Assembly (NCBI GenBank): GCA_021734245.1
Contig: JAIPJH010000006.1
Span: 5,194-69,193 of the forward strand
DNA from: Candidatus Cloacimonadota bacterium
GTDB taxonomy: Bacteria; Cloacimonadota; Cloacimonadia; Cloacimonadales; TCS61
DNA: 64,000 nt
Reading direction: 5' to 3'
Numbering within the stretch: the stretch's first letter is position 1; the number at the start of each line of letters is the position of its first letter. Below, piece by piece: positions 2,116 to 47,011 of the stretch. The notes under the pieces were generated by a model. That model made no database searches and had not been told where the DNA came from. It saw nothing but the letters and a program-made list of their open reading frames with translations. Position numbers and translations under genes: made by a program.

Positions 2116-2201
2116 GCTCCCCTTCGTAAGGGGAGATTAAGAGGGGTTTTGTCAGATATTTAAATTTGATTATCAAAATCAAACCCCCTCCCAAAGGGGA
2201 A
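2116..2201. repeat. Composite hairpin repeat: A-type hairpin, GAGGGGTTTTGTCAGATA AT-rich linker, then an inverted AAACCCCCTC arm
   Basis: gctccccttcgtaaggggag forms a 7-bp stem. gaggggtttt at 2141-2150 is the inverse complement of aaaccccctc at 2181-2190. A second copy lies at 3491-3594. Confidence 0.8.
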
Positions 2202-3490: not shown

Positions 3491-3594
3491 GCTCCCCTTC
3501 GTAAGGGGAGAAGAAGACGAAGTCGAAGTCGAAGAGGGGTTTTGTCAGATAAATAATTTTGATTATTAAACCTCTTCCCCTTCTAAAGGGAGAC
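3491..3594. repeat. Composite hairpin repeat, second copy of the 2116-2201 element
   Basis: gctccccttcgtaaggggagaagaagacgaagtcgaagtcgaagaggggttttgtcagataaataattttgattattaaacctcttcccc. It shares the A hairpin and the ggggttttgtcagata...ttgattat linker with 2116-2201. Confidence 0.8.
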
Positions 3595-8220: not shown

Positions 8221-8484
8221 GTGTGCACCTGCATTCGATACCTATTCCATAACAAGAGATAACAGCCAGCTCAAACCAAGTAGACCAACGGCACATTGCA
8301 AGATCTGCTTATTGCTGCTTCCTTCCAGACCTGACAAGGTTCACAGTTTACAATTGCGTCGGGCTTGATTCTCAACACCGCTTATTATTCTTGAAACGGA
8401 AATCAGTATTCTCCTGCAGGAATTCAGCCCCGCTATAGCGGATTGCGGGTTACAAGGCACCGCTGACTCCCCACCTAGCACACA
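8221..8484 (-). ncRNA. ffs: Signal recognition particle RNA, long (Alu-domain-containing, Bacillus-like) form
   Basis: The minus-strand sequence ccttgtcaggtctggaaggaagcagcaataagcagat matches the universally conserved SRP RNA domain IV (GUCAGGUCCGGAAGGAAGCAGC). The ends gtgtgc and gcacac can pair. Boundaries are approximate, within about 20 nt. Confidence 0.8.
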
Positions 8485-9021: not shown

Positions 9022-12000
9022 ATGAAATTTATTTTAACTTTTTTTGTTGTATTTTTTATATTTGCAGGATTATGTGCGCAAACTTATGTTCCAGATGCAA
9101 ATTTTAGAGAGGCAATAAATGATGAACTTGGGCAACCAGTTGGTTACGATCCAACAATTGCAGACTTGAACAGCTTAACAGGCCTATTAGATGTTGGTGA
9201 TGAAGGAATTTTATCTATTGAAGGTGCACAATATCTTACTGGGATTGACAGACTTTATATTGATGATAATCAGATATCCAATTTATCACCAGTTGCTGGG
9301 CTAACGAACTTGGAAAGACTTTTTGCTGATGGAAACCAGATCGTTGATATCTCTCCTGTAGCAAACCTAACCGCTCTCGTTCAACTAAAACTTGATGGAA
9401 ATCTTATAGTAGATATCTCCGCTGTTTCTGGTTTAACTGATCTTTATTATCTCGATCTTGGTGAAAATCAAATCGAAGATATATCACCTCTATCCACATT
9501 AACTACCACTTCCTGGATATATCTGGATAACAATCAGATCTCTTCTATTTCAGCTTTGGAAGGATTAGTAGAATTAGATAGACTGTATTTACATAATAAT
9601 AAGATTACTGAAATCTATCATTTAGTTCAGAATGCTGGTTTGGAATCGGGAGATTTGATCTATCTGGAAAGAAATGGAGTTAGTAATCCACTGTCTGTAG
9701 AAGCACTTGCTGTTCATGTTCCAGCATTGGAAGCAAGAGGTGTTGATGTTCATTATCCAGCTTCACCAAATTTAGAAGCAGCCTGCTATCCAGATCCAGA
9801 GAGAGAAGATAATACGGTTTCTCCTGCAAATGTATATTTTACATGGCAGGGATCTGATAATCCTGCCGATGTAACATATAAAATTTGGGCTGGTATATCA
9901 ATTGCTTCAATGAATTATTATGGTGACGGAGTTCATGGAAGCGGTACAGAATGGACATCTAATGGAGTAGTTTACTTATCTTCTAATATGGATATGTATT
10001 GGCAGATTGAAACTGTAACCACTACTGGAAGTTTATGGAGTGAGATCTGGCATTTCAGTACACCTGATGCAAATGCTGTTTTTGCTGATTTCAGCGCTGA
10101 TCAAACTACTGTAACAAATGCAACCCCTATTACATTTACTGATGAATCTTATGGATCAATAACAACTTGGTCCTGGGATTTTGATAATGATGGTACAATT
10201 GATTCCACTGATGAAAATCCAATATATACTTATACCACCAGCGGAACATATACAGTAAGTTTAACAGTGGGAAATGGAATTGATACAGATACCGAAACCA
10301 AGGTTGATTATATCACAGTTGATTTTGTCACTCCAGAATTTACTGATTTAGGTTTGCTCCAATCAAATGATCAATCAACTTGGACACCGGTTAACGGTTC
10401 AATGTATGATTATTCTATGCTTTTAGATCCTACAGAACAATATTATTTTTTAGATATGACAGCGGCTTCTGCCACAAATACACCTTTGCAGGTAGGTTTA
10501 CATCCTTTCTATTTTGATGGTGTTCCTGCTGGCTTCTTCGATTACTGGGCTGCAAAGAACGTTTTTGATGGGTGTGTTCCAGTAGATCCAAATCTTCCAT
10601 GGGAACCAATAATGTATCAGATTATATCCTCTAACTTACCTGTTTTCTATATCAGTTATGCTGCTGATGGTTCCTGGCAACTGGTCGATGGTCTGCTTTA
10701 TGAGTTAGACGGTACTCAGGATGATTTCAGAGTTAACGGAGATTATTTGATCGGCGATTATACAATTACTGGAAATGTAACTGGTGCTAACGGCATCCAA
10801 TCCGAGGATATTAGTGTTGATATAGAATTCTATACATTTGAACCAGATTTTGAAGCAGATCAAACATCAGTTATTCCTGGTACAACTGTACAATTTACCG
10901 ATCTTTCCAATGAAACTCCTACAGCCTGGAGTTGGGATTTGGATGGAGATGGAATAGAGGATTCTGATTTGCAAAATCCTACCTTTACGTACAATACTGT
11001 AGGAACATATGATGTCACTTTAACAGTAGAATGGGGAGCTTATGATGATACAGAAACCAAAACAGAATATATTGTTGTGGCAGATTTAGTTGTTCCCGAT
11101 GAAAACTTCCGAGAAGCATTAAATGATATTCTGGGAGAACCATCAGGATATTATCCTACAATTGCAGATTTAAATGGAATTACTGGAACTGTTGATGTAT
11201 CTGATGAAGAGATTATTTCAATAGAAGGTGCTCAATATTTAACTGGCATAGATAGATTATATATTGATGATAATCAAATTGTTGATCTTTCACCAATTGC
11301 TGGTTTAACAAATCTGGAAAGATTATTTGCTGATGGAAATGAAATCATTGATATTTCTGCGGTTGCAAATCTTACAGCTCTGGATCAATTGAAACTTGAT
11401 GGAAATGAAATCGTAGATATCTCTGCTGTTTCCGGTCTAACTAACCTTTACTACATTGATCTTGGTGAAAACCTGATAGTTGATATCTCTCCACTTTCTA
11501 CTTTTACCACAACTTCCTGGATTTATCTGGATAATAACTTTATCAATGAAATTTCTGCTCTCTCTGGTCTTTTAGAATTGGACAGGTTGTATATCTATGG
11601 AAATGAGATCACAGATATTTATCCATTAACTTTGAATACCGGATTTGGCGATGATGACGTTCTTTACTTAGAACGTTATGGTTATGGTAATCCTATATCT
11701 CATGAATCTATGAATGTATATATCCCAATTTTAGAAACTCTTGGATTCAGTACTCTTCAATATCCATCTGCTGCTAATCTGGAAGCTGCCTGTTACCCAG
11801 TTCCAAACAGAGATGCAACTGGTGTTTCTTTGAGTGCCGATCTCCAGTGGCAGGGAAATTTCCCGACAGATAATGCAACCTACAAAGTCTGGTTTGGAGA
11901 AGCAGCTGATAATCTGTCTTACGTTGGTGATGCAATTTCACTTGGTGGAAATATGTATTCATTCACTCCAACTTTAGCTTTGAACGGTGAATACTGGTGG

Positions 12001-15000
12001 AGAATAGAATGTGTTGGTGCTACAGAAACTGTATGGAGCGGATTGTGGCATTTTGAACTTCAGACAATTCAACTACCTGAATTTACAGATATGGCTTTAA
12101 ATAAAGCTTTTGATCCTGTGAATGGTCCTTGGACAGCTGTATCAAGCACATCAATGTATGATTACAGTATGACTTTAGATCCGAATGATCCATTTGTTGT
12201 TGCTGATTATTATTTCCTCGATATTGATAATACTGTTGCAGCAACTAATATGACCATAGACAGTGGACAACATCCTTTCTATTTAGACGTAACTTCAGTT
12301 CCGGATGACTTCTACACTTACTGGGCTGCTAATAATGTAACTGAAACTTATGCCACAAACAATCCAGGAACATGGCAAGCTTTAATGTGGCCTATTATTA
12401 ATGGCACTGAACCTATGTTCCTTATTGATTATAATAATATTGTACCAAATGGTTATTTTCTGCTTGATGGTTTACAATGGGCTCAGGGAAATGTTTCGAA
12501 TTTCATTATTAACAGCGATTATCCTGCTGGTGATTATGTAGTATCTGGAAATATTGAATCGGGTACTTTAGTTTCAAATGATATCGAGTTTGATTTGAGC
12601 TTATCACGAGACATTCCTGAATTTACAGATCTGGCATTAATCCAAGCTTTCGATCCTGTAAATGGTCCTTGGACAGCTGTTCCAAGCACATCTAATTACG
12701 ATTATAGTATGATCCTTGATCCGAATGATCCATTTGTTATAGAAGATTATTATTTCTTAAATATTGATAATGCTGTTGCTACAACAAATATTGAACTTCA
12801 AGCAGGACAACACCCTTTCTACTTAGACGTAACTTCAGTTCCGGATGACTTCTACACTTACTGGGCTGCTAAAGGCGTTGATGGAACAGTTTACACAGCT
12901 CCAGAAGATCTATGGAAAAACTTTATGTGGCCTATTATTAATGGCACTGAACCTATGTTCCTAATAGATTTCAATAATATTGTGACTAATGGTTATTTCC
13001 TGCTTGATGGTTTACAGTGGGCAATTGGTGATGTTTCAAATTTCATTATTAACAGTGATTACCCTCTTGGTGATTATGTTGTGACTGGAACTGTTTTGGG
13101 AGCGAACCTTGAACCATCTGAGGATATCTCTTTTAACATGAATTTCCATGGCATTTCAGCCGATTTCGAAGCAGATGCTACAAGTGTTACAAATGGTACA
13201 GAAATTCAATTTACAGACCTTTCTACTGGCAATCCGACAACTTGGGAATGGGATTTTGATAATGATGGTATAATTGATTCCACTGATGAAAATCCTGCTT
13301 ATACTTATCCTGGTGGAGGAACTTACACGGTTTCTCTTACAGTAAGTAATGGAACGGATACTGATACCGAAACCAAAACAGATTACATAACTGTAGCGGG
13401 AACTCATTTCGTAAAATGCTGGAGTGGTAATGGTTATCAAAACATGACTTTCCACATCTATGATGCAGCTATGAACGGTGAAGATCTGGATGTTGGTGAT
13501 GAAATTGGTATTTTTGATGGAAACCTTTGTGTTGGATCTTTAATCTATAATGGAGACCTTCCATTCCAAATGATTGCTTCTCAAGATGATCCTGATACAC
13601 CAGAAAGTGATGGTTTCAGCGAAGGGCATGATATTACATTCAAACTTTGGAATGAAAGTTCATCAACAGAATACTTAGTTCCAGAAGAACCTTCTTATTT
13701 AACAGGAGATGTTACGTTTACGCAATATGGAACAGCATTTACTAAACTATTCGGCTATGATGTTAATGCTCTAGCGCAAGACATTCCTTTATATAATAGT
13801 TGGAATTTAGTTTCTACTTATGTTCAACCATACGATCTTGATATGGCAGCTATTTTTGATCATCTTATTTACACTGATGCTCTTGTAAAAGTACAAGACG
13901 AAAGTGGAAATGCATTGTTTGAAATTCCAGGAGACGATTGGTATAATGGAATTGGTGATCTTACTTATACAGAAGGTTATTACACTAAGGTCAATGCCGA
14001 TAATGATCTTTACATTTTCGGAGACGATTTTGTAACTCTGCCAATTGATATTCAACTTTCTGCAGGCTGGAATATTATTAGTTATCCATGTAATACCTCT
14101 CAAGCAGCTTTACCTGTAATTCAACCTCTCATCGATCTGGGAGTTTTGGAAAAAGTTCAAAACGAAATGGGTTTAGCAATTTGGTTTGATGGAACAAACT
14201 GGCTAAATCAAATAAATACTTTCTACCCGGGTGATGGTTATTTCATCAAAGTGAATGCTGACTGTACATTGACGATTGATGTACCTACTGATGTTGTTGC
14301 AAGATACAAAAATGCACAACATTCGAATGAACCTTTAAATAGAGAAACATATCACTTCCAACCAGAATGGCAGAATAATCCCTTCCTGCCGATGAACTTC
14401 TACATTAATGATCTGGAAGTAGCTGGAGTAACTCTGGAAGCAAATGATGAACTGGCAGTATTTGATGGTGATCTTTGCGCAGGAACTGCTCAGGTTGGAG
14501 AAAATGATATGATCTCATTGATCGCTGCAACCGATGATGTAACTACCACAGAAATCGACGGATTCACAAACGGTAATGACTTCACATTTAGATTCTGGGA
14601 CAGCAGCACGGATACTGAATATTCTGATTTCCAATATACAAACCTAAGTGGAAATGCAACTTTCTTGTCACAAGGCACAACTCAGTCATCAATTGAATTC
14701 CTACCGACAAGTGGAGGGGCAAATCTGGTTCCTGTTACTACAGAAATGTTCCAGAACTATCCAAATCCATTCAATCCTGAAACTACGATCAGTTTTGGTA
14801 TCAACGATGCTGCTCATGTAACTCTGGAAGTTTATAACATCAAAGGTGAAAAGGTTACCACTCTTATCGATGGTAATCTGGAAGCTGATTATTATAATGT
14901 AGTTTGGGATGGAACTGATAGCAACAATAAGAGAGTTTCAACTGGTGTTTACTTCTACAAAATGAAAGCAGACAAGTTCGTTCAAACCAAGAAGATGATC

Positions 15001-15012
15001 CTGATGAAATAG
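9022..15012 (+). CDS. Giant secreted surface protein (1996 aa): two internalin-type LRR modules, three PKD domains, three copies of an unassigned 180-aa domain, two copies of a second unassigned domain, and a T9SS-type C-terminal sorting domain
   Basis: The ATG at 9022 lies 4 nt after AGGAGG, followed by signal peptide MKFILTFFVVFFIFAGLCAQ. There are 22-residue LRRs (LTNLERLFADGNQIVDISPV...), PKD motifs (WSWDFDNDGTIDSTDENPIYTY...YTVSLTV), and a C-terminus NYPNPFNPETTISF...GVYFYKMKA. Confidence 0.85.
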   Translation: MKFILTFFVVFFIFAGLCAQTYVPDANFREAINDELGQPVGYDPTIADLNSLTGLLDVGDEGILSIEGAQYLTGIDRLYIDDNQISNLSPVAGLTNLERLFADGNQIVDISPVANLTALVQLKLDGNLIVDISAVSGLTDLYYLDLGENQIEDISPLSTLTTTSWIYLDNNQISSISALEGLVELDRLYLHNNKITEIYHLVQNAGLESGDLIYLERNGVSNPLSVEALAVHVPALEARGVDVHYPASPNLEAACYPDPEREDNTVSPANVYFTWQGSDNPADVTYKIWAGISIASMNYYGDGVHGSGTEWTSNGVVYLSSNMDMYWQIETVTTTGSLWSEIWHFSTPDANAVFADFSADQTTVTNATPITFTDESYGSITTWSWDFDNDGTIDSTDENPIYTYTTSGTYTVSLTVGNGIDTDTETKVDYITVDFVTPEFTDLGLLQSNDQSTWTPVNGSMYDYSMLLDPTEQYYFLDMTAASATNTPLQVGLHPFYFDGVPAGFFDYWAAKNVFDGCVPVDPNLPWEPIMYQIISSNLPVFYISYAADGSWQLVDGLLYELDGTQDDFRVNGDYLIGDYTITGNVTGANGIQSEDISVDIEFYTFEPDFEADQTSVIPGTTVQFTDLSNETPTAWSWDLDGDGIEDSDLQNPTFTYNTVGTYDVTLTVEWGAYDDTETKTEYIVVADLVVPDENFREALNDILGEPSGYYPTIADLNGITGTVDVSDEEIISIEGAQYLTGIDRLYIDDNQIVDLSPIAGLTNLERLFADGNEIIDISAVANLTALDQLKLDGNEIVDISAVSGLTNLYYIDLGENLIVDISPLSTFTTTSWIYLDNNFINEISALSGLLELDRLYIYGNEITDIYPLTLNTGFGDDDVLYLERYGYGNPISHESMNVYIPILETLGFSTLQYPSAANLEAACYPVPNRDATGVSLSADLQWQGNFPTDNATYKVWFGEAADNLSYVGDAISLGGNMYSFTPTLALNGEYWWRIECVGATETVWSGLWHFELQTIQLPEFTDMALNKAFDPVNGPWTAVSSTSMYDYSMTLDPNDPFVVADYYFLDIDNTVAATNMTIDSGQHPFYLDVTSVPDDFYTYWAANNVTETYATNNPGTWQALMWPIINGTEPMFLIDYNNIVPNGYFLLDGLQWAQGNVSNFIINSDYPAGDYVVSGNIESGTLVSNDIEFDLSLSRDIPEFTDLALIQAFDPVNGPWTAVPSTSNYDYSMILDPNDPFVIEDYYFLNIDNAVATTNIELQAGQHPFYLDVTSVPDDFYTYWAAKGVDGTVYTAPEDLWKNFMWPIINGTEPMFLIDFNNIVTNGYFLLDGLQWAIGDVSNFIINSDYPLGDYVVTGTVLGANLEPSEDISFNMNFHGISADFEADATSVTNGTEIQFTDLSTGNPTTWEWDFDNDGIIDSTDENPAYTYPGGGTYTVSLTVSNGTDTDTETKTDYITVAGTHFVKCWSGNGYQNMTFHIYDAAMNGEDLDVGDEIGIFDGNLCVGSLIYNGDLPFQMIASQDDPDTPESDGFSEGHDITFKLWNESSSTEYLVPEEPSYLTGDVTFTQYGTAFTKLFGYDVNALAQDIPLYNSWNLVSTYVQPYDLDMAAIFDHLIYTDALVKVQDESGNALFEIPGDDWYNGIGDLTYTEGYYTKVNADNDLYIFGDDFVTLPIDIQLSAGWNIISYPCNTSQAALPVIQPLIDLGVLEKVQNEMGLAIWFDGTNWLNQINTFYPGDGYFIKVNADCTLTIDVPTDVVARYKNAQHSNEPLNRETYHFQPEWQNNPFLPMNFYINDLEVAGVTLEANDELAVFDGDLCAGTAQVGENDMISLIAATDDVTTTEIDGFTNGNDFTFRFWDSSTDTEYSDFQYTNLSGNATFLSQGTTQSSIEFLPTSGGANLVPVTTEMFQNYPNPFNPETTISFGINDAAHVTLEVYNIKGEKVTTLIDGNLEADYYNVVWDGTDSNNKRVSTGVYFYKMKADKFVQTKKMILMK
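12076..13155 (+). repeat. In-frame 540-bp tandem duplication (two units) inside the giant gene
   Basis: The units start at 12076 and 12616 (cctgaatttacagat...). Long identical stretches include cttcagttccggatgacttctacacttactgggctgct and tgtggcctattattaatggcactgaacctatgttcct. Confidence 0.85.
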
Positions 15013-15234
15013 TCCTTCGGAATTTCACGGGACAGGTCCTGATGAAATAGAAATTAGACTTTATATTTCAGATTACGCTCCGGCTTAGGTCGGAGCGTTT
15101 TTATTTTCATTACTTCCCGAAAATTGTTTTCGGGAGAACTTGTTCTAGCAGACAAGTTCGTTCAAACCAAGAAGATGATCCTGATGAAATAGTCCTTCGG
15201 AATTTCACGGGACAGGTCCTGATGAAATAGAAAT
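14967..15234 (+). repeat. Partial tandem duplication: the 88-bp segment 14967-15054 is repeated perfectly at 15147-15234 (period 180 bp)
   Basis: agcagacaagttcgttcaaaccaagaagatgatcctgatgaaatagtccttcggaatttcacgggacaggtcctgatgaaatagaaat occurs twice. Copy 1 contains the last 15 codons and the stop of the giant gene. Confidence 0.9.
15075..15107 (+). terminator. Intrinsic terminator of the giant gene
   Basis: An 8-bp stem, acgctccg gcttaggt cggagcgt, followed by ttttatttt. Confidence 0.75.
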
Positions 15235-17049: not shown

Positions 17050-17306
17050 ATTTTCTACCTTAATAAAATTATTACTTTTTCTTGAAACAGAGTTTCAATT
17101 AACACTGATGTTACCAAACAGGAGTTTGGGAACAAGAATAAGTTATCATTACATTATGATCTTTTCGTTTATTATATCATCCACTATTTTTATCATTTCA
17201 AATTAAGAAAATTCTTAAATTTGACTATCCCCGTGGCAGAGCATCGAGGAATTCTTAGATTAAAACATTCTAAAGATCACGATGAATCGTGAACATTTAG
17301 AAGTTT

Positions 17307-18360: not shown

Positions 18361-19194
18361 TTATTTACCCTTACAAAGGGGAGCTTTTCGCAACGAAAAA
18401 TCAAAAGCTTTCACCGAATGGGTTAGTTCGCCTACCGAAATAAAATCGACACCAGTATCTGACACTTCCGGAATTCTTTCCAAAGTCATATTTCCGCTGG
18501 CTTCTGTTTCACATTTTCCAGAAATAATTTCAACTGCTTTTTTCATCATTTCACAGTTCATATTATCCAGCATAATGCGATCTACTTTGCATTCCAGTGC
18601 TTCTTTTACTTCCTGCAAATTTCTTGTTTCCACTTCTATCCCAAATCTATTTTGCCATTTATCTCTGATCTTTTGTACCGCTTTGGAGATTCCACCGGCA
18701 GCATCGATGTGATTGTCTTTGATCATCACCATATCGAAAAGTCCCATACGATGATTTTGGCCACCGCCACATCTCACTGCATATTTCTGTAGTTTGCGTA
18801 ATCCCGGAAGTGTTTTGCGAGTATCCAAAATTATTGATTTTCCCTTCGATGCTTCTACAAATTGGGAAGTTTTACTGGCAATTCCACTGAGATGAGCCAG
18901 AATATTTAGAGCAGTTCTTTCCGCTTTCAAAATTGAAGATACTTTCCCTGACAAAATAGCAATTTCATCGTTTTCTTCAATCTTATCTCCATCTTTGAAA
19001 TTCAACTTAATTTCGATTGAATTATCTACACTTTCAATCACAGATTTGAATTCCAAAATTCCACATAAAATTCCAGATTGCTTGGCGATTAAAACAAATT
19101 GATTTTGTTCGTTCTTAAAGATAGCTTCACCTGTTACATCTCCCAAATCTGCGAAATCTTCCTTAAGTGTTGATGTTAATAATTCTCTATTCAT
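18361..19194 (-). CDS. nadC: Nicotinate-nucleotide diphosphorylase (carboxylating)
   Basis: TRKTLPGLRKLQKYAVRCGGGQNHR...IMLDNM motifs, 277 aa. Confidence 0.9.
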   Translation of the reverse strand: MNRELLTSTLKEDFADLGDVTGEAIFKNEQNQFVLIAKQSGILCGILEFKSVIESVDNSIEIKLNFKDGDKIEENDEIAILSGKVSSILKAERTALNILAHLSGIASKTSQFVEASKGKSIILDTRKTLPGLRKLQKYAVRCGGGQNHRMGLFDMVMIKDNHIDAAGGISKAVQKIRDKWQNRFGIEVETRNLQEVKEALECKVDRIMLDNMNCEMMKKAVEIISGKCETEASGNMTLERIPEVSDTGVDFISVGELTHSVKAFDFSLRKAPLCKGK

Positions 19195-22650: not shown

Positions 22651-23001
22651 AAAAAAAATGCGTTCCTAAACCAGAGTATAGTAACGAGAATAAAACTGAA
22701 CAAAACAAAAATCCTTAAGTACTCAAATAAAGAAAATTTGGAAAACCCCGATGCAGAGCAGCGAGGAATTCTTTCGATTTAAACAGGCTAAAGTGTTTAA
22801 TTCATACATTTACTTGACGTACGTAAACTAATAAATATTTCAGTTTTTGCAAAGCAATTGCGGCCAAAGTATGCATACAGCAATTGCTGACAGATTTGTG
22901 GATTGAAGTGTGAAGATAAGTGGGCAATCATTTCCCGCAGTGATGAGCCCTCATCGGATAATTCCTTTTGCGAGTCTGTAAAATATCTCTAGGAGGGCAC
23001 A

Positions 23002-24260: not shown

Positions 24261-24621
24261 TTATAAATTTTGATTGCCTTTCCTTTTCTGAAACAGAAGT
24301 TTCGATAAAAAAAACTGCGTTCCCAAACTGGAGTTTAAGAACGATAAATAGCTGGAGTGTATTATCGACCTGCCAGGTCGATAAATAAAGAAAATTCTTA
24401 AATTTGACTATCACCGTGGCAGAGCCAAGGTGTATTTCGCTAAATTTATTTCAGCAAGCTGAAAATCGAATTTTCATTATTTACACCTCTGCCTTTGGCA
24501 TCTCCCCTCAAACAGGGGAGAATATTTGGAAAACCCCGATGCAGAGCAGCGAGGAATTCTTTCGATTCAAGTTTTTTAGCATCAGGAAAATTATTTATTC
24601 ATCCTGTGATACTGTCTGAAA

Positions 24622-28820: not shown

Positions 28821-30146
28821 ATGGGCTTGAAAACTTTTCCAGGGGGTATTCACCCTCATGATTCCAAGCAATTTTCCAAACATGCTTCAATTGAAAAAAT
28901 GCCAATTCCAAATAAAGTGGTAATTCCTCTTTCTCAGCATATTGGAGCTCCGGCCAAACCGATCGTAAAAGTTGGCGATGAAGTTCTGGCAGGACAGATT
29001 ATTGCCGAAGCTGGTGGATTTGTTTCCATTCCGATGCATGCTTCTATTTCAGGTAAAATTACCAAAATCGGAAGATTCAATCATCCGACCGGAATTTTAG
29101 CAGACGGAATCGAGATAACCAGCGACGGTGAAGACAAATGGGTCGATTTTATCGAAGAGGAAGAATTCATGGCGGTAGCTGTGAAGGAGATGAAAGATCG
29201 CATTGCCAAAGCAGGAATCTGCGGAATGGGTGGAGCTGGTTTTCCCACTCATGTAAAACTTTCACCACCAGAAGATAAACCGATCGATACTGTGATTTTA
29301 AATGGTGTGGAATGTGAACCTTATCTTACTGCAGATTATCGCATTATGATGGAACAACCCAATGATATCATTGCCGGCCTTAAGATCGTGATGAAAATCC
29401 TGAATGCTAAACGCGGAATTATCGGCATCGAAGAAAACAAACCGGATACAATAAAACTTTTTAAAGAACTTCTAAAAAATGAATCTAAATTAAGCGTTGA
29501 AGGTTTGAAATTAAAATATCCTCAGGGTGCAGAAAAACAATTGATCTACGCTGCTACAAAAAGAGCCGTTCCCAATAAAGGCGGACTTCCCATGGATGTG
29601 AATGTGGTAGTTCAGAATGTGGGAACTGCAATCGCAATTTATGAAGCTGTAAAATATAAAAAACCTCTTGTGGAACGTGTTATCACAGTCAGTGGAAAAA
29701 TCGTGAGAAAACCTAAGAATTTACGGGCAAGAATCGGAACTTTTTATGGAGATCTGCTGGAATTTTGCGGAGGAACAACATCCGATATCGGTAAAGTGAT
29801 CTCTGGTGGGCCGATGATGGGATTTGCAATTCCAAGCTTGGAAACTCCCATGACAAAAGGCAGTTCAGGACTTCTCTTATTTGATAAAAAAGAAGCCAAC
29901 AAAGAAAAAGAAGATGTTTGTTTGCGTTGTGCTCGTTGTGTAGACATCTGCCCCATGAACCTGGTTCCCAGCCTGATAGCAAATAACGTTCGCTATGACG
30001 ATATTGATATGGCAGAAAAATATGGTGTGATGGATTGTATGAAGTGCGGCAGTTGTGCTTATGTATGTCCTTCCCATATTAAACTGATCCAATGGATCGA
30101 TATTGGCAAACTGAAGATCAGCGAAAAACGAGCAAAAAATAAATGA
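28821..30146 (+). CDS. rnfC: Rnf electron transport complex subunit C
   Basis: MGLKTFPGGIHPHD, GMGGAGFPTHVK, and two 4Fe-4S motifs (CLRCARCVDICP, CMKCGSCAYVCP). Confidence 0.9.
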   Translation: MGLKTFPGGIHPHDSKQFSKHASIEKMPIPNKVVIPLSQHIGAPAKPIVKVGDEVLAGQIIAEAGGFVSIPMHASISGKITKIGRFNHPTGILADGIEITSDGEDKWVDFIEEEEFMAVAVKEMKDRIAKAGICGMGGAGFPTHVKLSPPEDKPIDTVILNGVECEPYLTADYRIMMEQPNDIIAGLKIVMKILNAKRGIIGIEENKPDTIKLFKELLKNESKLSVEGLKLKYPQGAEKQLIYAATKRAVPNKGGLPMDVNVVVQNVGTAIAIYEAVKYKKPLVERVITVSGKIVRKPKNLRARIGTFYGDLLEFCGGTTSDIGKVISGGPMMGFAIPSLETPMTKGSSGLLLFDKKEANKEKEDVCLRCARCVDICPMNLVPSLIANNVRYDDIDMAEKYGVMDCMKCGSCAYVCPSHIKLIQWIDIGKLKISEKRAKNK

Positions 30147-30162
30147 AAAATGCATATTTATC

Positions 30163-30277
30163 AACCCCCTGTTTCCCACTTCTCAGCGGGAGAATGAGGA
30201 ATTCGGATTCTTTTTCGTTTTCTGATTTCTGCCTTGTTAAAGGGAGATGTCTCGAGAGTTTTCGAGACAGAGGGGTT
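30163..30277. repeat. 115-bp structured repeat element inserted between rnfC and rnfD
   Basis: Terminal inverted ends aaccccctg / cagaggggtt. The left arm resembles module C (..gagaatgaggaattc). The right arm is a module B variant (tttctgccttgttaaagggaga + tgtctcgagagttttcgagaca + gaggggtt). Confidence 0.8.
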
Positions 30278-30320
30278 CGAAAGCAAAAAATAAATTAAAA
30301 ATAATAAATTTGGAGGATTT

Positions 30321-31388
30321 ATGAGCGAAGTTTATGCTGTTTCGGCAGCTCCTCATATAAAGCAAAAGATTTCTGTTTCCTCTGTGATGTGGCAGGTTGT
30401 TATCGCTTTAATTCCAGCTCTTCTGGCAGGAATTTTCTTCTTTGGAATTCAATCGCTTTTGCTTACACTTTATGCGGTGGTTGCTGCTGTTGTTACAGAA
30501 GCACTAATTCAGAGATTACGCAATGTTCCGATCTCGGTAAGTGACGGCAGTGCAGTTGTAACCGGTATTCTGGTTGCTTTCAACATCAACGTTGCTTCAC
30601 CCTGGTGGCTGCCTGTTGCAGGATCGGTTTTTGCTATTGCAGTTGGAAAGCAGATATTTGGTGGACTTGGATTTAACATTTTCAATCCGGCACTTCTGGG
30701 AAGAGCATTTTTAGTAGCTTCCTGGCCGACTTTAACTACAGCCGGATGGACTAAAACCATGCCGCTTAATGGAATTTTTGAAAGTTCGATCAATGGTTTG
30801 AAAGCACTACCATCCAATATTCCTGATGTGATTACTTCTGCCACTCCTCTTGGTGTTGCAAAAGCTCTCAGAGACACAACACAAATAAGTCGAGACATGG
30901 CAGAAACTGTTATGAATAATTTGGCAAGTACTGATACTATTCAAAATATTTTCTGGGGAAACATCGGTGGTTGTATTGGAGAAATCTCGGCTGCAGCACT
31001 TCTTATCGGTGCGGCTTATCTGGCTTATAAACACATTATTGAATGGAGAATTCCAATCAGTTATATTGGAACTGTTTTTGTTTTAATTTACATTTTTGGC
31101 GGAATAAACGGATTATTCTCAGCCTCAATCATGTTGCCGATCTTCCACATTTTCTCCGGTGGATTGATTCTGGGAGCATTTTTTATGGCTACCGATATGG
31201 TTACTTCGCCAGTTACGAAAAGAGGACGCATAATCTTCGGTATCGGCTGCGGAGTTCTAACTGTTGTCATTCGTATGGTCGGTGGATATCCGGAAGGTGT
31301 ATCCTATTCTATTCTGCTGATGAACATTGCTGTTCCACTCATCGACAGATACACTGGACCCAAGATCTTTGGGGAGGTGAAGAAATGA
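30321..31388 (+). CDS. rnfD: Rnf complex subunit D
   Basis: Polytopic membrane protein with GGLGFNIFNPALLGRAF and the FMATDMVTSP (FMN attachment region) motifs. Confidence 0.9.
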   Translation: MSEVYAVSAAPHIKQKISVSSVMWQVVIALIPALLAGIFFFGIQSLLLTLYAVVAAVVTEALIQRLRNVPISVSDGSAVVTGILVAFNINVASPWWLPVAGSVFAIAVGKQIFGGLGFNIFNPALLGRAFLVASWPTLTTAGWTKTMPLNGIFESSINGLKALPSNIPDVITSATPLGVAKALRDTTQISRDMAETVMNNLASTDTIQNIFWGNIGGCIGEISAAALLIGAAYLAYKHIIEWRIPISYIGTVFVLIYIFGGINGLFSASIMLPIFHIFSGGLILGAFFMATDMVTSPVTKRGRIIFGIGCGVLTVVIRMVGGYPEGVSYSILLMNIAVPLIDRYTGPKIFGEVKK

Positions 31389-35705: not shown

Positions 35706-35720
35706 AATAATATAATTAAC

Positions 35721-36061
35721 TGTCATTCTGAGTTAACTTTTAGCTTTACCTGCGACTGAGTCCGGCGAAGCTTTGCCAAGCCGGAACGATCTCGTGAGAT
35801 TTCTCTCAACTTTATTTAAAGAGGAAGTTGGACTTCACGTCTCGTGGAGTCTGTATGTTTCTGAACTTCGTCTGGAAGTTTATATTTAATTGATCGAGGA
35901 CGATCAAAATGAAACTTATAGTTCAATCGAGACGAATGAACTAACCTTTCGTGAAAACAATTGAGATTCTTCCCACCTGTGTCGGCGAAGCTTGGCAGAC
36001 CTGGTGGAATTGGAAAAAACTAGCAGCAAAGCTGCATTCCACAGGGCTGGCAGAATGACGA
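35721..36061. mobile_element. MITE-like non-autonomous element, copy 1 (about 340 bp)
   Basis: Terminal inverted repeats tgtcattctg (35721) and cagaatgacg (36051-36060). The right arm of about 60 nt is near-identical to 42510-42571. No ORF. Confidence 0.6.
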
Positions 36062-36179
36062 AATTTTTTATATTTAATCAGCGTTTATTTGCATTCATCT
36101 GCGGTTAATTTAATAAAAGAAATTGACTCATTTCTTTCTATACAAATATTCGATTGAGATAAATTAATGAGGAGGGCAC

Positions 36180-37262
36180 ATGAAAAACTTTCGATTAGTT
36201 TTTGTTTTATTTTTTATTTTCAGTCTAAACCTGATCTGGAGTCAAAGCATCGCACGCTGGTATACTTCGATGGGAGATTTTGAAGTAACATTGCGCGAAG
36301 ATCTGATGCCGATTACAACAAATAACTTTCTGGACCTAACCAATTCAAACTTCTATGATAACCTGATTTTTCACCGTGTTATTGCAGATTTCATGATCCA
36401 GGACGGCTGACCACTGGGAACAGGCTACGGAGGTCCGGGCTATACAATTCCAGATGAATGGAATCCACTGGTAAATTATAATGAACCTTATGTAATCGGA
36501 ATGGCAAACACTGGCGCACCAAATTCTGCTGGATCACAATATTTCATAACAGTAGAGCCGACAACCTGGTTGAATGGCGATTATGCTGCTTTTGGTCACG
36601 TGACAATGGGAAGCGATATCGTGGAAGACATCAGTGAAGTTCCTACAGATGCAAACGATAAACCGTTAGTTGACGTTGAGATCGACAGTGTGCGAATTAT
36701 GACAGCACAATTTTACGGGTTCAGTCCCGAAGAAGATTCGCTTTATGTGAATGCCGGCGATCCGCTGGTTTTCGGAATGCTTACAAATGAACCGGATGTA
36801 ACTTTCAGTTGGTACGTGGACGATGAACTTCAAACCGAAACAGGTTTTCTTTTCAATGTTTCGCTTACTGTAAATGGTTGGCATGAAATCGTGGGAATCG
36901 GTACAAAAAATGGCTATGATTATGCAAAAACCTGGTGGGTTGAAATAACAGGAGGTTCTCATCTTGATGATATTCTAACGGCAAACAAAAATGTTCTTCT
37001 GCCAAATTCACCTAATCCATTCAATCCGGAAACGAATATTTCCTTCTATTTGAATGCTGCTGAAAAAGCCGTTTTGAAAATTTACAACGCAAGAGGAGAA
37101 TTGGTGAAAATTCTGGTTAATTCTCAGCTTACAGCCGGTTTCCATTCCTATATTTGGAATGGAACAGACTCTTCCAACCAAAATGTTGCCAGCGGAATTT
37201 ATTATTATCAACTTCGAGCAGGAAATCAAACACAAACCCGCAAAGCACTTTTATTGAAATAA
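36180..37262 (+). pseudogene. Secreted cyclophilin-type peptidyl-prolyl isomerase with a T9SS-type C-terminal domain, interrupted by an in-frame TGA at 36408-36410
   Basis: ORFs 36180-36410 and 36501-37262 share one frame. The continuous reading [30 protein letters not shown]...MANTGAPNSAGSQYFIT gives the cyclophilin core. C-terminus NSPNPFNPETNISF...GIYYYQLRA. Confidence 0.65.
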
Positions 37263-38572: not shown

Positions 38573-39105
38573 AGATTTACGATTGAAAAAGCTCCCCTTT
38601 GTAAGGGGAGAAGAGAAACGAAGTTTCGAAGTGGGGTTTTAGATTGAAGATTGAAAATTTGAATTCCTTATTTCTCCCTTGTTAAGGGGAGATGCCGACA
38701 GGCAGAGGGGTTATTGATTTACGATTTTAGATTTAAGAATGATAAAGCTCCCCTTTGTAAGGGGAGAAGAGAAACGAAGTTTCGAAGTGGGGTTATAGAT
38801 TTAAGATTTACGATTGAAGATTTACGATTTTAGATTTAAGAATGAAAAGCTCCCCTTTGTAAGGGGAGAAGAGAAACGAAGTTTCGAAGTGGGGTTATAG
38901 ATTTAAGATTTACGATTTACGATTGAAGATTTACGATTTTAGATTTAAGAATGAAAAGCTCCCCTTTAAAGGGGAGAAGAGAAACGAAGTTTCGAAGTGG
39001 GGTTTTAGATTTAAGATTTATTTAATTATCAGATTCCTTATTTCTCCCTTGTTAAGGGGAGATGCCGACAGGCAGAGGGGTTATCTAAGATTGAAGATTT
39101 AATTA
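38567..39105 (+). repeat. Mosaic repeat array: hairpin modules A1-B1-A2-A3-A4-B2 joined by GATTNAN heptamer tracts
   Basis: The A modules (gctcccctttgtaaggggagaagagaaacgaagtttcgaagtggggtt) lie at 38591, 38747, 38849 and 38958. The B modules (ttccttatttctcccttgttaaggggagatgccgacaggcagaggggtt) lie at 38664 and 39034. The linkers are gatttaa/gatttac/gattgaa units. Confidence 0.9.
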
Positions 39106-39121
39106 ATCATCAGGAGGAGTC

Positions 39122-40462: not shown

Positions 40463-40767
40463 AGATTGAAAAAGCTCCCCTTTTAAGGGGAGAAGAGAAA
40501 CGAAGTTTCGAAGTGGGGTTTTAGATTTAAGATTGAAAATTTGAGTTCCTTATTTCTCCCTTGTTAAGGGGAGATGCCGACAGGCAGAGGGGTTATCTAA
40601 GATTGAAGATTTACGATTGAAGATTTACGATTTTAGATTTAAGAATGAAAAGCTCCCCTTTGTAAGGGGAGAAGAGAAACGAAGTTTCGAAGAGGGGTTT
40701 TAGATTTAAGATTGAAAATTTGAGTTCCTTATTTCTCCCTTGTTAAGGGGAGACAGAGTGACGAATC
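40455..40767 (+). repeat. Mosaic repeat array continued: A5-B3-A6-B4
   Basis: A modules at 40474 and 40652. B modules at 40546 and 40725; the last B has a divergent 3-prime half. The TGA stop of the kinase gene (40460-40462) lies inside a heptamer unit, tattgaa gattgaa. Confidence 0.9.
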
Positions 40768-40784
40768 GTTAGTTTTGTTCGTTG

Positions 40785-42328: not shown

Positions 42329-42571
42329 TGTCATCTTGAGGAATCCTGTTGCATTACTTTCCAAAAGATCTCCTGAAATTTCTTTTAGCTTTATTTCTCG
42401 CTTTGTATGTAAAAGAGATTCTTCCAAAGAACATCGTGCATGAAACGTCCAACCTTCGCAAAGCTTCTGCCTTCGTCATTGACTACGGCATGACAAGTCG
42501 GCTTGGCAGGCCCGGTGGAATTGGAAAAGCCAGCAGCAAAGCTGCATTCCACAGGGCAGGCAGAATGACGA
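42329..42571. mobile_element. MITE-like non-autonomous element, copy 2 (about 243 bp)
   Basis: Ends tgtcatcttgag (42329) and cagaatgacg (42561-42570). The right arm ggtggaattggaaaa.ccagcagcaaagctgcattccacagggc.ggcagaatgacg is shared with copy 1. Confidence 0.6.
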
Positions 42572-46948: not shown

Positions 46949-47011
46949 AACCCCTCTGTTCTGTTTAGAAGAGCAGAACATCTCCCCTTAACAAGGGAGA
47001 AACTTAAGGAA
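46949..47011 (-). repeat. Module B repeat in reverse orientation with a substituted second hairpin
   Basis: aacccctctgttctgtttagaagagcagaacatctccccttaacaagggagaaacttaaggaa. The ends match the reverse complement of module B, and the internal hairpin gttctg..cagaac replaces gcc..ggc. Confidence 0.8.

Follow-up and report, generated by a model that had tools for sequence, protein, structure and literature searches.

An element between rnfC and rnfD of a Candidatus Cloacimonadota genome is probably a composite of two inverted, partly decayed triplex-type modules of the BoxC/PIT kind

The BoxC repeat of E. coli (Bachellier et al.) corresponds to a class II purine-motif intrastrand triplex fold, for which Holder et al. 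2015 (PMC4666352) introduced the name TM_ECO and which, according to that paper, was rediscovered by Hoyne and Maher (2000/2002) as 'potential intrastrand triplex' (PIT) elements. As single-stranded DNA, a TM_ECO oligonucleotide adopts a stable triplex, as judged by circular dichroism and nuclear magnetic resonance, and purine-motif triplexes form in single-stranded DNA and not in RNA (Holder et al. 2015). TM_ECO motifs are intergenic and often arranged as inverted pairs at loci that vary between strains, BoxC has not been found on mobile elements in E. coli, and PIT elements of E. coli lack promoter or terminator activity according to the work of Hoyne and Maher as it is cited there (Holder et al. 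2015). The published searches work with short loops, of 1-6 nt in the triplex finder ITxF (loop 2 of TM_ECO has 3 nt) and, as the same paper describes it, of 0-10 nt in the search of Hoyne et al. Here we report on a 115-bp element located between rnfC and rnfD in a 64,000-nucleotide stretch, hereafter the window, of a Candidatus Cloacimonadota metagenome-assembled genome (MAG) with 37% GC (GCA_021734245.1, contig JAIPJH010000006.1, positions 5,194 to 69,193). This element is probably a recently inserted, dispersed intergenic repeat of the BoxC/PIT kind, made up of two inverted, partly decayed triplex-type modules.

The modules of the window share with BoxC/PIT/TM_ECO the order of their parts (pyrimidine arm, loop, purine arm, loop, and a G-rich mirror third strand), the core CTCCCC/GGGGAG/GAGGGG, which in E. 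coli reads CCCTCTCCCC-ttt-GGGGAGAGGG-ccg-GGGTGAGGGG, and an intergenic, multicopy distribution with inverted pairs, occurrence inside operons (phnD-phnE in E. coli) and variation between close relatives. However, they have 8-9 triads, carry an AA/TT extension beside loop 1 and lack the distal GGG block, so that the published TM_ECO consensus (CCCTCNCCC-N3-6-GGGNGAGGG-N3-GGGNGAGGG) has 0 matches in the window; the same pattern has 3 matches in our E. coli control locus and also matches in 7 other fetched loci. The control locus is the phnD-phnE spacer of E. coli S51 (L262, 150-315), in which we found three TM_ECO copies where RefSeq annotates no feature, the first two forming an inverted pair with the loop-2 sequences CCG and TTA; a Verrucomicrobia-type 43-mer had matches in 3710 of 5426 E. 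coli genomes. Furthermore, loop 2 of the window modules is mostly a covarying hairpin of 12-24 nt instead of 3 nt and, because this exceeds the published loop limits, we class the window family as a variant of BoxC/PIT/TM. Direct arrays with AT-rich linkers and a Cloacimonadota host also set it apart from BoxC, as does its density: the 64 kb contain, not counting the rnf element, 16 modules (including two truncated ones) at seven sites, whereas E. coli K-12 has 23 per genome.

Each module consists of a pyrimidine arm CTCCCCTT, a loop, a purine arm AAGGGGAG, a linker and GAGGGGTT, and this last segment mirrors the purine arm. In consensus copies CTCCCCTT and AAGGGGAG form 8 Watson-Crick pairs across the short loop, and the 3' segment is a mirror of the purine arm in which A-to-T substitutions are allowed, as in the rule of purine-motif (reverse-Hoogsteen) triplexes. 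A strict class II motif scan requiring at least 7 triads found 8 perfect modules in the window and 0 in 100 block shuffles. Members were located by a regular-expression scan and a repeat finder. Allowing up to 1 mismatch, we counted AACCCCTCTG 9 times, with 2.1 occurrences expected and the observed count reached in 0 of 100 shuffles. The members belong to two types, type A being aaagCTCCCCTTtgtAAGGGGAGaaga-GAAACgaaGTTTC-gaagtGGGGTT and type B TCTCCCTTgttAAGGGGAGA-TG[stem-loop]CA-GAGGGGTT, and the B copies have one T·G pair. By these rules we classify the unit as a class II purine-motif potential intrastrand triplex. In the proposed fold, the G-rich strand would be single-stranded, its pyrimidine arm (T)CTCCCCTT would pair with the purine arm AAGGGGAG(A), and the 3' segment (A)GAGGGGTT would fold back antiparallel onto the purine arm, forming the triads G·G-C, A·A-T and T·A-T. 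The stretch that links the purine arm to the third strand would need only to join two ends. It could therefore have 3-5 nt or be a closed hairpin (in most cases TG...CA) with any sequence; this freedom would explain why the 'second hairpin' changes its sequence and yet stays a hairpin.

Comparison between copies suggests that the mirror relation is itself maintained. An extended hairpin 1 goes with a third strand extended in register, with 123 extension triads observed and 71.9±6.9 after permutation. Among modules whose purine arm lacks the GGGGAG core, collected from 1.76 Mb of fetched loci, the third segment is the mirror of the arm in 79 cases and, as a control, a direct repeat in 29, of which 13 come from the nearly symmetric GGGAGAGG. 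The rule is kept with other arms such as AAGAGGGG, followed by GGGGAGTT, AAGGAGGG, followed by GGGAGGTT, AAGGGGGA, followed by AGGGGGTT, or GGGGGAAA-tgtccgaaggac-AAAGGGGG, and some of the arm variants have loop-2 hairpins. A Dehalococcoidia sequence (OZ242166.1; L033, 2301-3970) contains three modules with the other arms TTTCCCCC...GGGGGAAA-tgtccgaaggac-AAAGGGGG that keep both the mirror rule and the loop-2 hairpin. Such mirror covariation between purine arm and third strand constitutes comparative evidence for selection on triplex geometry itself, and we infer that the selected fold is the triplex and not a protein-recognised sequence. The sequence rules, together with the published E. coli oligonucleotide work, suggest that this triplex would form in single-stranded DNA.

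Loop 2 measures 12-24 nt in almost every window copy, that of the rnf element having 22 nt, and is short (TTAA) only at 2117. In all tests of loop 2 the search patterns left the loop content free. The 37 distinct long loops of the genome set plus the window have a mean best perfect stem of 4.68, against 2.57±0.11 when shuffled, and a metagenome scan limited to loops of 10-40 nt gave 5.58 against 2.78±0.13 for 36 distinct loops. When 72 distinct loops from many phyla were pooled, 184 of the 253 cells at stem positions 3-6 were Watson-Crick pairs, compared with 81±7 (maximum 105 in 2000) when the 3' partners were permuted and 57-76 when the partners were slid, and each of these positions shows all four pair types. 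The data thus support conservation of the loop-2 hairpin as a structure with a changing sequence, in agreement with an earlier note on this DNA, which had deduced selection on structure from four window copies with different second hairpins and had proposed a covariation analysis of the family.

With regard to the element itself, a scan of the window proteins with NCBIfam places rnfC at 28821-30146 and rnfD at 30321-31388, followed by rnfG, E, A and B (order rnfCDGEAB), and the 174-nt spacer between the first two genes houses the element. The RnfD encoded in the window has 100% identity to a protein of an NCBI MAG (contig JAIPJU010000003.1, GCA_021733965.1). The placement, length and inverted ends (AACCCCCTG at 30163-30171 and CAGAGGGGTT at 30268-30277) are as the earlier note had described them, and the ends are inverted because they are the G-rich third-strand tails of two inverted modules. 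The right half, which had been taken for a relative of module B, is indeed a B module with two substitutions, and its relatives with other second hairpins at 38664 and its siblings, 46949 and 24483 are all present, in a family far above chance. The flanking hairpin, also described as conserved, is so as a consensus in the family, but in the rnf copy it has 7 of its 8 pairs, the remaining position being a G:G mismatch (TCTGCCTT/AAAGGGAGA instead of TCTCCCTT/AAGGGGAGA). Since the third strand has one A·G defect as well, 2 of the 9 triads are broken in total, and loop 2 is intact; a stem nearly identical to that of the rnf loop 2, TGTCTCGAT...ATCGAGACA, was found in one metagenome copy. The left module has a 7-bp hairpin in which a G·T pair on the minus strand corresponds to an A·C mismatch on the plus strand, and it is weakly similar to the D9 repeat family via GAGGAATTC. 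The predicted folds of the element reach -46.2 kcal/mol on the plus strand (z = -2.6 vs shuffles) and -39.6 kcal/mol on the minus strand (z = -3.0). No terminator-like signal was found in the element, promoter-like matches were not above chance, and its best match in Rfam 15 was RAGATH-19, with 19 bits when the gathering score needed is 85.6. The features are compiled in Table 1.

Table 1. Position, strand and supporting evidence of the rnf element, its parts and the other family members (window coordinates)
Position	Strand	Feature	Evidence
30163..30277	.	Composite 115-bp element; two inverted triplex-type modules, G-rich third-strand ends outward	Sequence, both-strand folds, absence from five relatives
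30163..30193	-	Left module, reversed, degenerate, short loop: TCCCGCT-GAGA-AGTGGGA-aac-AGGGGGTT on the minus strand	Sequence and minus-strand fold
30228..30235	+	Right module, pyrimidine (Y) arm TCTGCCTT; C-to-G vs family consensus	Sequence
30239..30247	+	Right module, purine (R) arm AAAGGGAGA; G-to-A vs consensus AAGGGGAGA	Sequence
30248..30269	+	Right module, loop 2 ('second hairpin'), 8 perfect pairs TGTCTCGA/TCGAGACA, loop GAGTTT	Sequence, family-wide covariation
30270..30277	+	Putative third-strand (reverse-Hoogsteen) segment GAGGGGTT, mirror of R arm	Mirror-rule tests
30131..30151	+	Left copy of duplicated target, AGCAAAAAATAAATGAAAAAT; holds rnfC stop TGA (30144-30146)	Match to right copy
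30282..30302	+	Right copy of duplicated target, AGCAAAAAATAAATTAAAAAT; former stop now TTA, precedes intact rnfD ribosome-binding site	Match to left copy
30312..30323	+	rnfD Shine-Dalgarno GGAGGA and start codon, intact 3' of the insertion	Sequence; same in relatives
2117..2148	+	Member with short loop 2 (TTAA); degenerate inverted partner to ~2201	Motif scan
3492..3541	+	Member with 22-nt loop 2, then second hairpin to 3593	Motif scan
18366..18389	-	Truncated module, hairpin 1 only, inside nadC 3' end	Sequence, protein scan
24483..24521	-	B-type module, loop 2 TGCC-aaa-GGCA, one third-strand defect (GAGGTGT)	Sequence
38592..39082	+	Direct array of six modules (A, B, A, A, A, B), AT-rich GATTGAAGATTT-type linkers	Motif scan
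40475..40753	+	Direct array of four modules (A, B, A, truncated B)	Motif scan
46949..46999	-	B-type module, 24-nt loop 2 TGTTCTG-ctcttctaaa-CAGAACA	Sequence

The rnf loci of relatives were gathered through RnfD homologues. Same-species contigs from other samples have a spacer identical to that of the window, whereas the element is absent from five close relatives that otherwise keep an identical rnf operon, with rnfC-rnfD spacers of 22 nt in L004 (RnfD identity 92%), 16 nt in L005 (90%), 28 nt in L126 (88%), 22 nt in L127 (87%) and 32 nt in L128 (87%). Moreover, the element is flanked by a target duplication, AGCAAAAAATAAAT[G/T]AAAAAT, of 21 nt with 1 mismatch, a score reached in 0 of 2000 flank shuffles, and the duplicated sequence is single-copy at the empty sites of L004, L005 and L127. 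According to this, the pair would have landed just 3' of the rnfC stop in an A-rich spacer, duplicating the ~21-nt target, and both the rnfC stop and the rnfD ribosome-binding site would thereby have survived; the two triad-breaking substitutions would have been gained later. The stop of rnfC and the start of rnfD now lie 174 nt apart (16-32 nt in the relatives), and their close coupling was therefore probably abolished. A further relative, L129 (GCA_030656075.1, RnfD identity 86%), from a second Cloacimonadota lineage, has a 123-nt rnfC-rnfD spacer (9878-10000) with another, short-loop module, CTCCCCTTCGAAAAGGGAGATTAAGAGGGGTT, in different flanks, and an independent insertion is the most economical reading of its sequence; the occupation of the same spacer would point either to a preferred target just past the stop codon or to a tolerated site. 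The L129 module sits 3' of an AAACGGA...TCCGTTT hairpin in this spacer.

Presence and absence at orthologous sites was also found elsewhere in the window. A 127-nt insert (2092-2218) that includes the 2117 module splits the junction between mnmA and an LPP20-family lipoprotein gene and has ATGA at both sides; in the relatives L259 and L261 these two genes overlap by ATGA. L261 bears a related pair at the site orthologous to the 3492 member. The two direct arrays flank an ATP-cone/uridine-kinase-like gene, have AT-rich linkers with a 7/14-nt period and share the loop-2 hairpin tGCCgacaGGCa (at 38664, 39034 and 40546), and the arrays around this gene are absent in L005. The 46949 module is the only copy that faces against both flanking genes.

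The family is not restricted to this organism. Scanning 185,579 species genomes with the pattern CTCCC-N5-6-AAGGGGAGA-N2-30-GGGGTT gave at least 120 loci, and the hosts among the matches listed are Cloacimonadota, Bacteroidota, Clostridia, Peribacteria, Gracilibacteria, Shapirobacteria, Saccharibacteria, Cyanobacteria, Dehalococcoidia, Verrucomicrobia, Geobacter and Gallionella. At positions that the pattern leaves free, the matches listed have CT in 96 of 115 and CTT in 69, which completes the 8-bp stem, and GA 5' of GGGGTT in 110 of 139, an excess that argues against chance matches. The linker appears in three forms: 3-5 nt (TTTA, TTAA, TACA or TGCA), a hairpin usually closed by TG...CA, and a short loop with a longer tail behind it (GGGTGAGGGGTT), which belongs to a subfamily whose hairpin 1 is longer (CCCTCTCCCC/GGGGAGAGGG). 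Most modules are solitary or in direct arrays without an inverted partner; an inverted partner end within 200 nt was present in 22 of 115 members outside the window, among the matches listed. The family sits at unrelated intergenic sites in many phyla and is rare in viral contigs (9 matches), and a search of Rfam with 18 diverse loci gave no family overlapping the motif.

Several other explanations have to be considered for the rnf element. The earlier note had proposed selection at the RNA or cruciform-DNA level and a role in differential mRNA stability or processing between rnfC and rnfDGEAB, that is, hairpins in the rnfCDGEAB mRNA acting as a decay barrier or processing site that would set the levels of RnfC with respect to RnfDGEAB. 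The strong predicted fold of the plus strand fits this, as do the spacing from stop to start, with its probable loss of translational coupling, the presence of the L129 module in the same spacer and the orientation of the copies: the rnf element is co-oriented with its operon, 7 of the 8 window sites are co-oriented with their flanking genes and a count across genomes gave 60 co-oriented upstream genes vs 33 (crude open reading frame calls, among the matches listed). However, for tandem gene pairs outside the window, also with crude calls, the bias is weak (31 vs 19 and 19 vs 12), and a first orientation count of 71 vs 33, on which we do not rely, weakened without the window copies and with a metagenome replicate. 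Against a dedicated rnf role stands the comparison of the rnfC-rnfD spacers that the earlier note had proposed, in which the five relatives with RnfD identities of 87-92% have the same operon without the element; furthermore, the rnf copy is degenerate and the family is dispersed at unrelated sites. An RNA hairpin would leave the third segment without a role, and yet this segment covaries with the purine arm; Rfam gives no match, and the E. coli PIT elements are without promoter or terminator activity according to Hoyne and Maher as cited by Holder et al. 2015. Therefore, of the earlier proposal, selection on structure stands, but the three-part architecture is that of a purine-motif triplex, which would form in single-stranded DNA and not in RNA (Holder et al. 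2015), and an RNA-level cis element setting the Rnf levels is quite improbable. The insertion would be neutral or only incidental for rnf expression; the hairpins may have an effect on the rnf mRNA, and there is no comparative evidence for selection on such an effect.

A conventional miniature inverted-repeat transposable element (MITE), whose AACCCC.../...GGGGTT ends would be bound by a transposase acting in trans, with the duplication as its footprint and the hairpins being incidental, is unlikely as well. The 115 bp of the rnf element, the inverted ends of 9-10 nt, the clear filled and empty sites with a flanking direct duplication, and the members elsewhere that have an inverted partner end would all be expected from such an element, but these ends are the third-strand segments of two inverted modules, and most modules have no inverted partner at all. 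A duplication of 21 nt is longer than usual for bacterial transposases, and it was not reproduced at four other sites of the window. Moreover, we found no transposase gene, including any with a Y1 domain, among the window proteins scanned, which lie within the first ~57 kb, and the rarity of the motif in viral contigs and the absence of E. coli BoxC from mobile elements (Holder et al. 2015) point in the same direction. The possibility that GGGGAG/GAGGGG plus hairpins are sites for a nucleoid or repair protein, the mirror symmetry being a by-product, draws on the same core being found in many phyla and on the arrays with their regular, periodic AT-rich linkers. REP/BIME elements, for instance, bind gyrase and IHF. 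However, duplex-binding dimers do not read mirror (non-rotational) symmetry, and the arms differ between subfamilies while the three-way rule is kept, which favours a nucleic-acid fold over a fixed protein site; with no candidate protein identified either, we regard this explanation as very improbable.

The reading of the rnf element as two inverted, partly decayed triplex-type modules of a dispersed repeat therefore seems the probable one, but there are observations that weigh against it. The formation of the triplex rests on sequence rules and on E. coli oligonucleotides, and in E. coli the triplex went undetected in vivo by dimethyl sulphate footprinting (Holder et al. 2015). The cross-phylum search patterns fix the core arms, so that their conservation is partly an effect of ascertainment, and a sequence-specific protein reading GGGGAG/GAGGGG could make part of the pattern. 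In the case of the insertion, the duplication was significant at the rnf site alone, the flanks of the four other sites being not significant in the same shuffle test. Finally, both the co-orientation of the window sites with their neighbouring genes and the second module in the rnfC-rnfD spacer of L129 are compatible with an effect at the transcript level or with a preferred target.

The family also differs from the remaining described repeats to which it may be compared. Like the window modules, REP/BIME and REPIN are short intergenic palindromic units that appear singly, in inverted pairs or in mosaic arrays and are tolerated in operons, often just 3' of stops. REP elements are mobilised by REP-associated tyrosine transposases (RAYT). 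In the window, however, the GTAG-type 5' motif of REP is not present and no RAYT-type transposase was seen among the proteins scanned, and REPs are species-specific hairpins without a third mirror segment, whereas the three-part rule of the window recurs across phyla. Correia/NEMIS and ERIC elements resemble the rnf element in being ~100-150 bp long, with inverted ends, between cotranscribed genes and foldable in the mRNA. Their terminal inverted repeats are long, however, their target duplication is short and fixed (TA), and their processing by RNase III is documented, none of which has been shown for the rnf element. H-DNA, like the window modules, involves a purine mirror repeat that obeys reverse-Hoogsteen rules, but it is formed by a continuous homopurine-homopyrimidine duplex tract, whereas the window modules have all three strands on one strand, and their fold would therefore need single-stranded DNA.

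Other candidates were rejected. A resemblance to the T-arm of tRNA, through GGGGTTCGAA, is limited to the rnf copy; the words of the repeat differ from GGGNAGGG, the FtsK-orienting KOPS; AAC/GTT lies on the wrong side for an integron attC site; and no feature supports the ends of an IS200/IS605 transposon.

Some observations on the repeats of the window stand apart from these questions. The 18366 module encodes the last residues of NadC (…RKAPLCKGK) and its stop, and the orthologue in L005 ends differently and overlaps nadA. The two arrays (in the regions 38573-39121 and 40463-40784) begin right at the TGA stops of the two upstream genes (TGAAGATT...). In the corresponding spacers, the same AT-rich GATTGAAGATTTACGATT linkers are found in L127 (18261-18402 and 19744-20055) with another hairpin, TCCGCC-ttg-GGCGGA, and in L126 (18039-18146), but there with CCTTCGGAACGG repeats, so the hairpin type appears to be exchangeable inside a conserved linker scaffold. 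A separate intergenic repeat (AAAACCCCGATGCAGAGCAGCGAGGAATTC...) occurs at 17214-17265, 22731-22782 and 24519-24570, where it abuts the 24483 module, and it has GAGGAATTC in common with the left half of the rnf element.

As to gene order, the Pro_isomerase/FAD-dependent/ATP-cone and ackA-nadCAB blocks of L005 are relocated with respect to the window, L126, L127 and L128. The breakpoints of L005 are intergenic regions that bear repeats in the window, and L005 itself has none in 21 kb. We rejected the idea that these synteny breaks are repeat-associated breakpoints of the window, since L126-L128 share its gene order, and L005 is therefore the rearranged genome. Elsewhere in the window, the region 35706-37262 has ~800 nt without an open reading frame of at least 90 aa and then a cyclophilin/FlgD_ig/Por-tail gene with a Pfam match that begins at position 93 of the profile; the gene looks N-terminally truncated and may be a decaying or rearranged one, and in relatives it is split or whole. 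A 47-nt direct repeat (AAAAACTAGCAGCAAAGCTGCATTCCACAGGGCTGGCAGAATGACGA), 94% identical, is located at 36015-36061 and 42525-42571, and a perfect 88-nt direct repeat (14967-15054 and 15147-15234, 180 nt apart) lies at and just past the 3' end of a gene for a 2020-aa LRR/PKD/Por-tail protein. The only Rfam family in the window is the large bacterial signal recognition particle RNA (RF01854, 189 bits) at 8221-8483 on the minus strand, and the window has no tRNA genes.

What is new in this work is that the three-strand rule also works when the second loop is a long, covarying hairpin, that such modules occur in Cloacimonadota, Bacteroidota, Clostridia, lineages of the candidate phyla radiation, Cyanobacteria, Dehalococcoidia and others, that purine arm and third strand show mirror covariation, and that a filled site and its empty counterpart can be compared cleanly, with a target duplication. 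For annotation, this means that operon-internal elements of this type should not be read as dedicated RNA regulators. A wider and rather unlikely idea is that modules combining a triplex with a loop-2 hairpin are a class of mobile DNA found across phyla, which would be copied into A/T-rich sites just 3' of stops via a single-stranded DNA intermediate whose triplex-plus-hairpin fold is recognised, leaving long target duplications that vary from ~8 to 21 nt. If this were true, the BoxC/PIT elements, known since the 1990s, would gain a mechanism of mobility, and purine-motif triplexes would gain a biological role.

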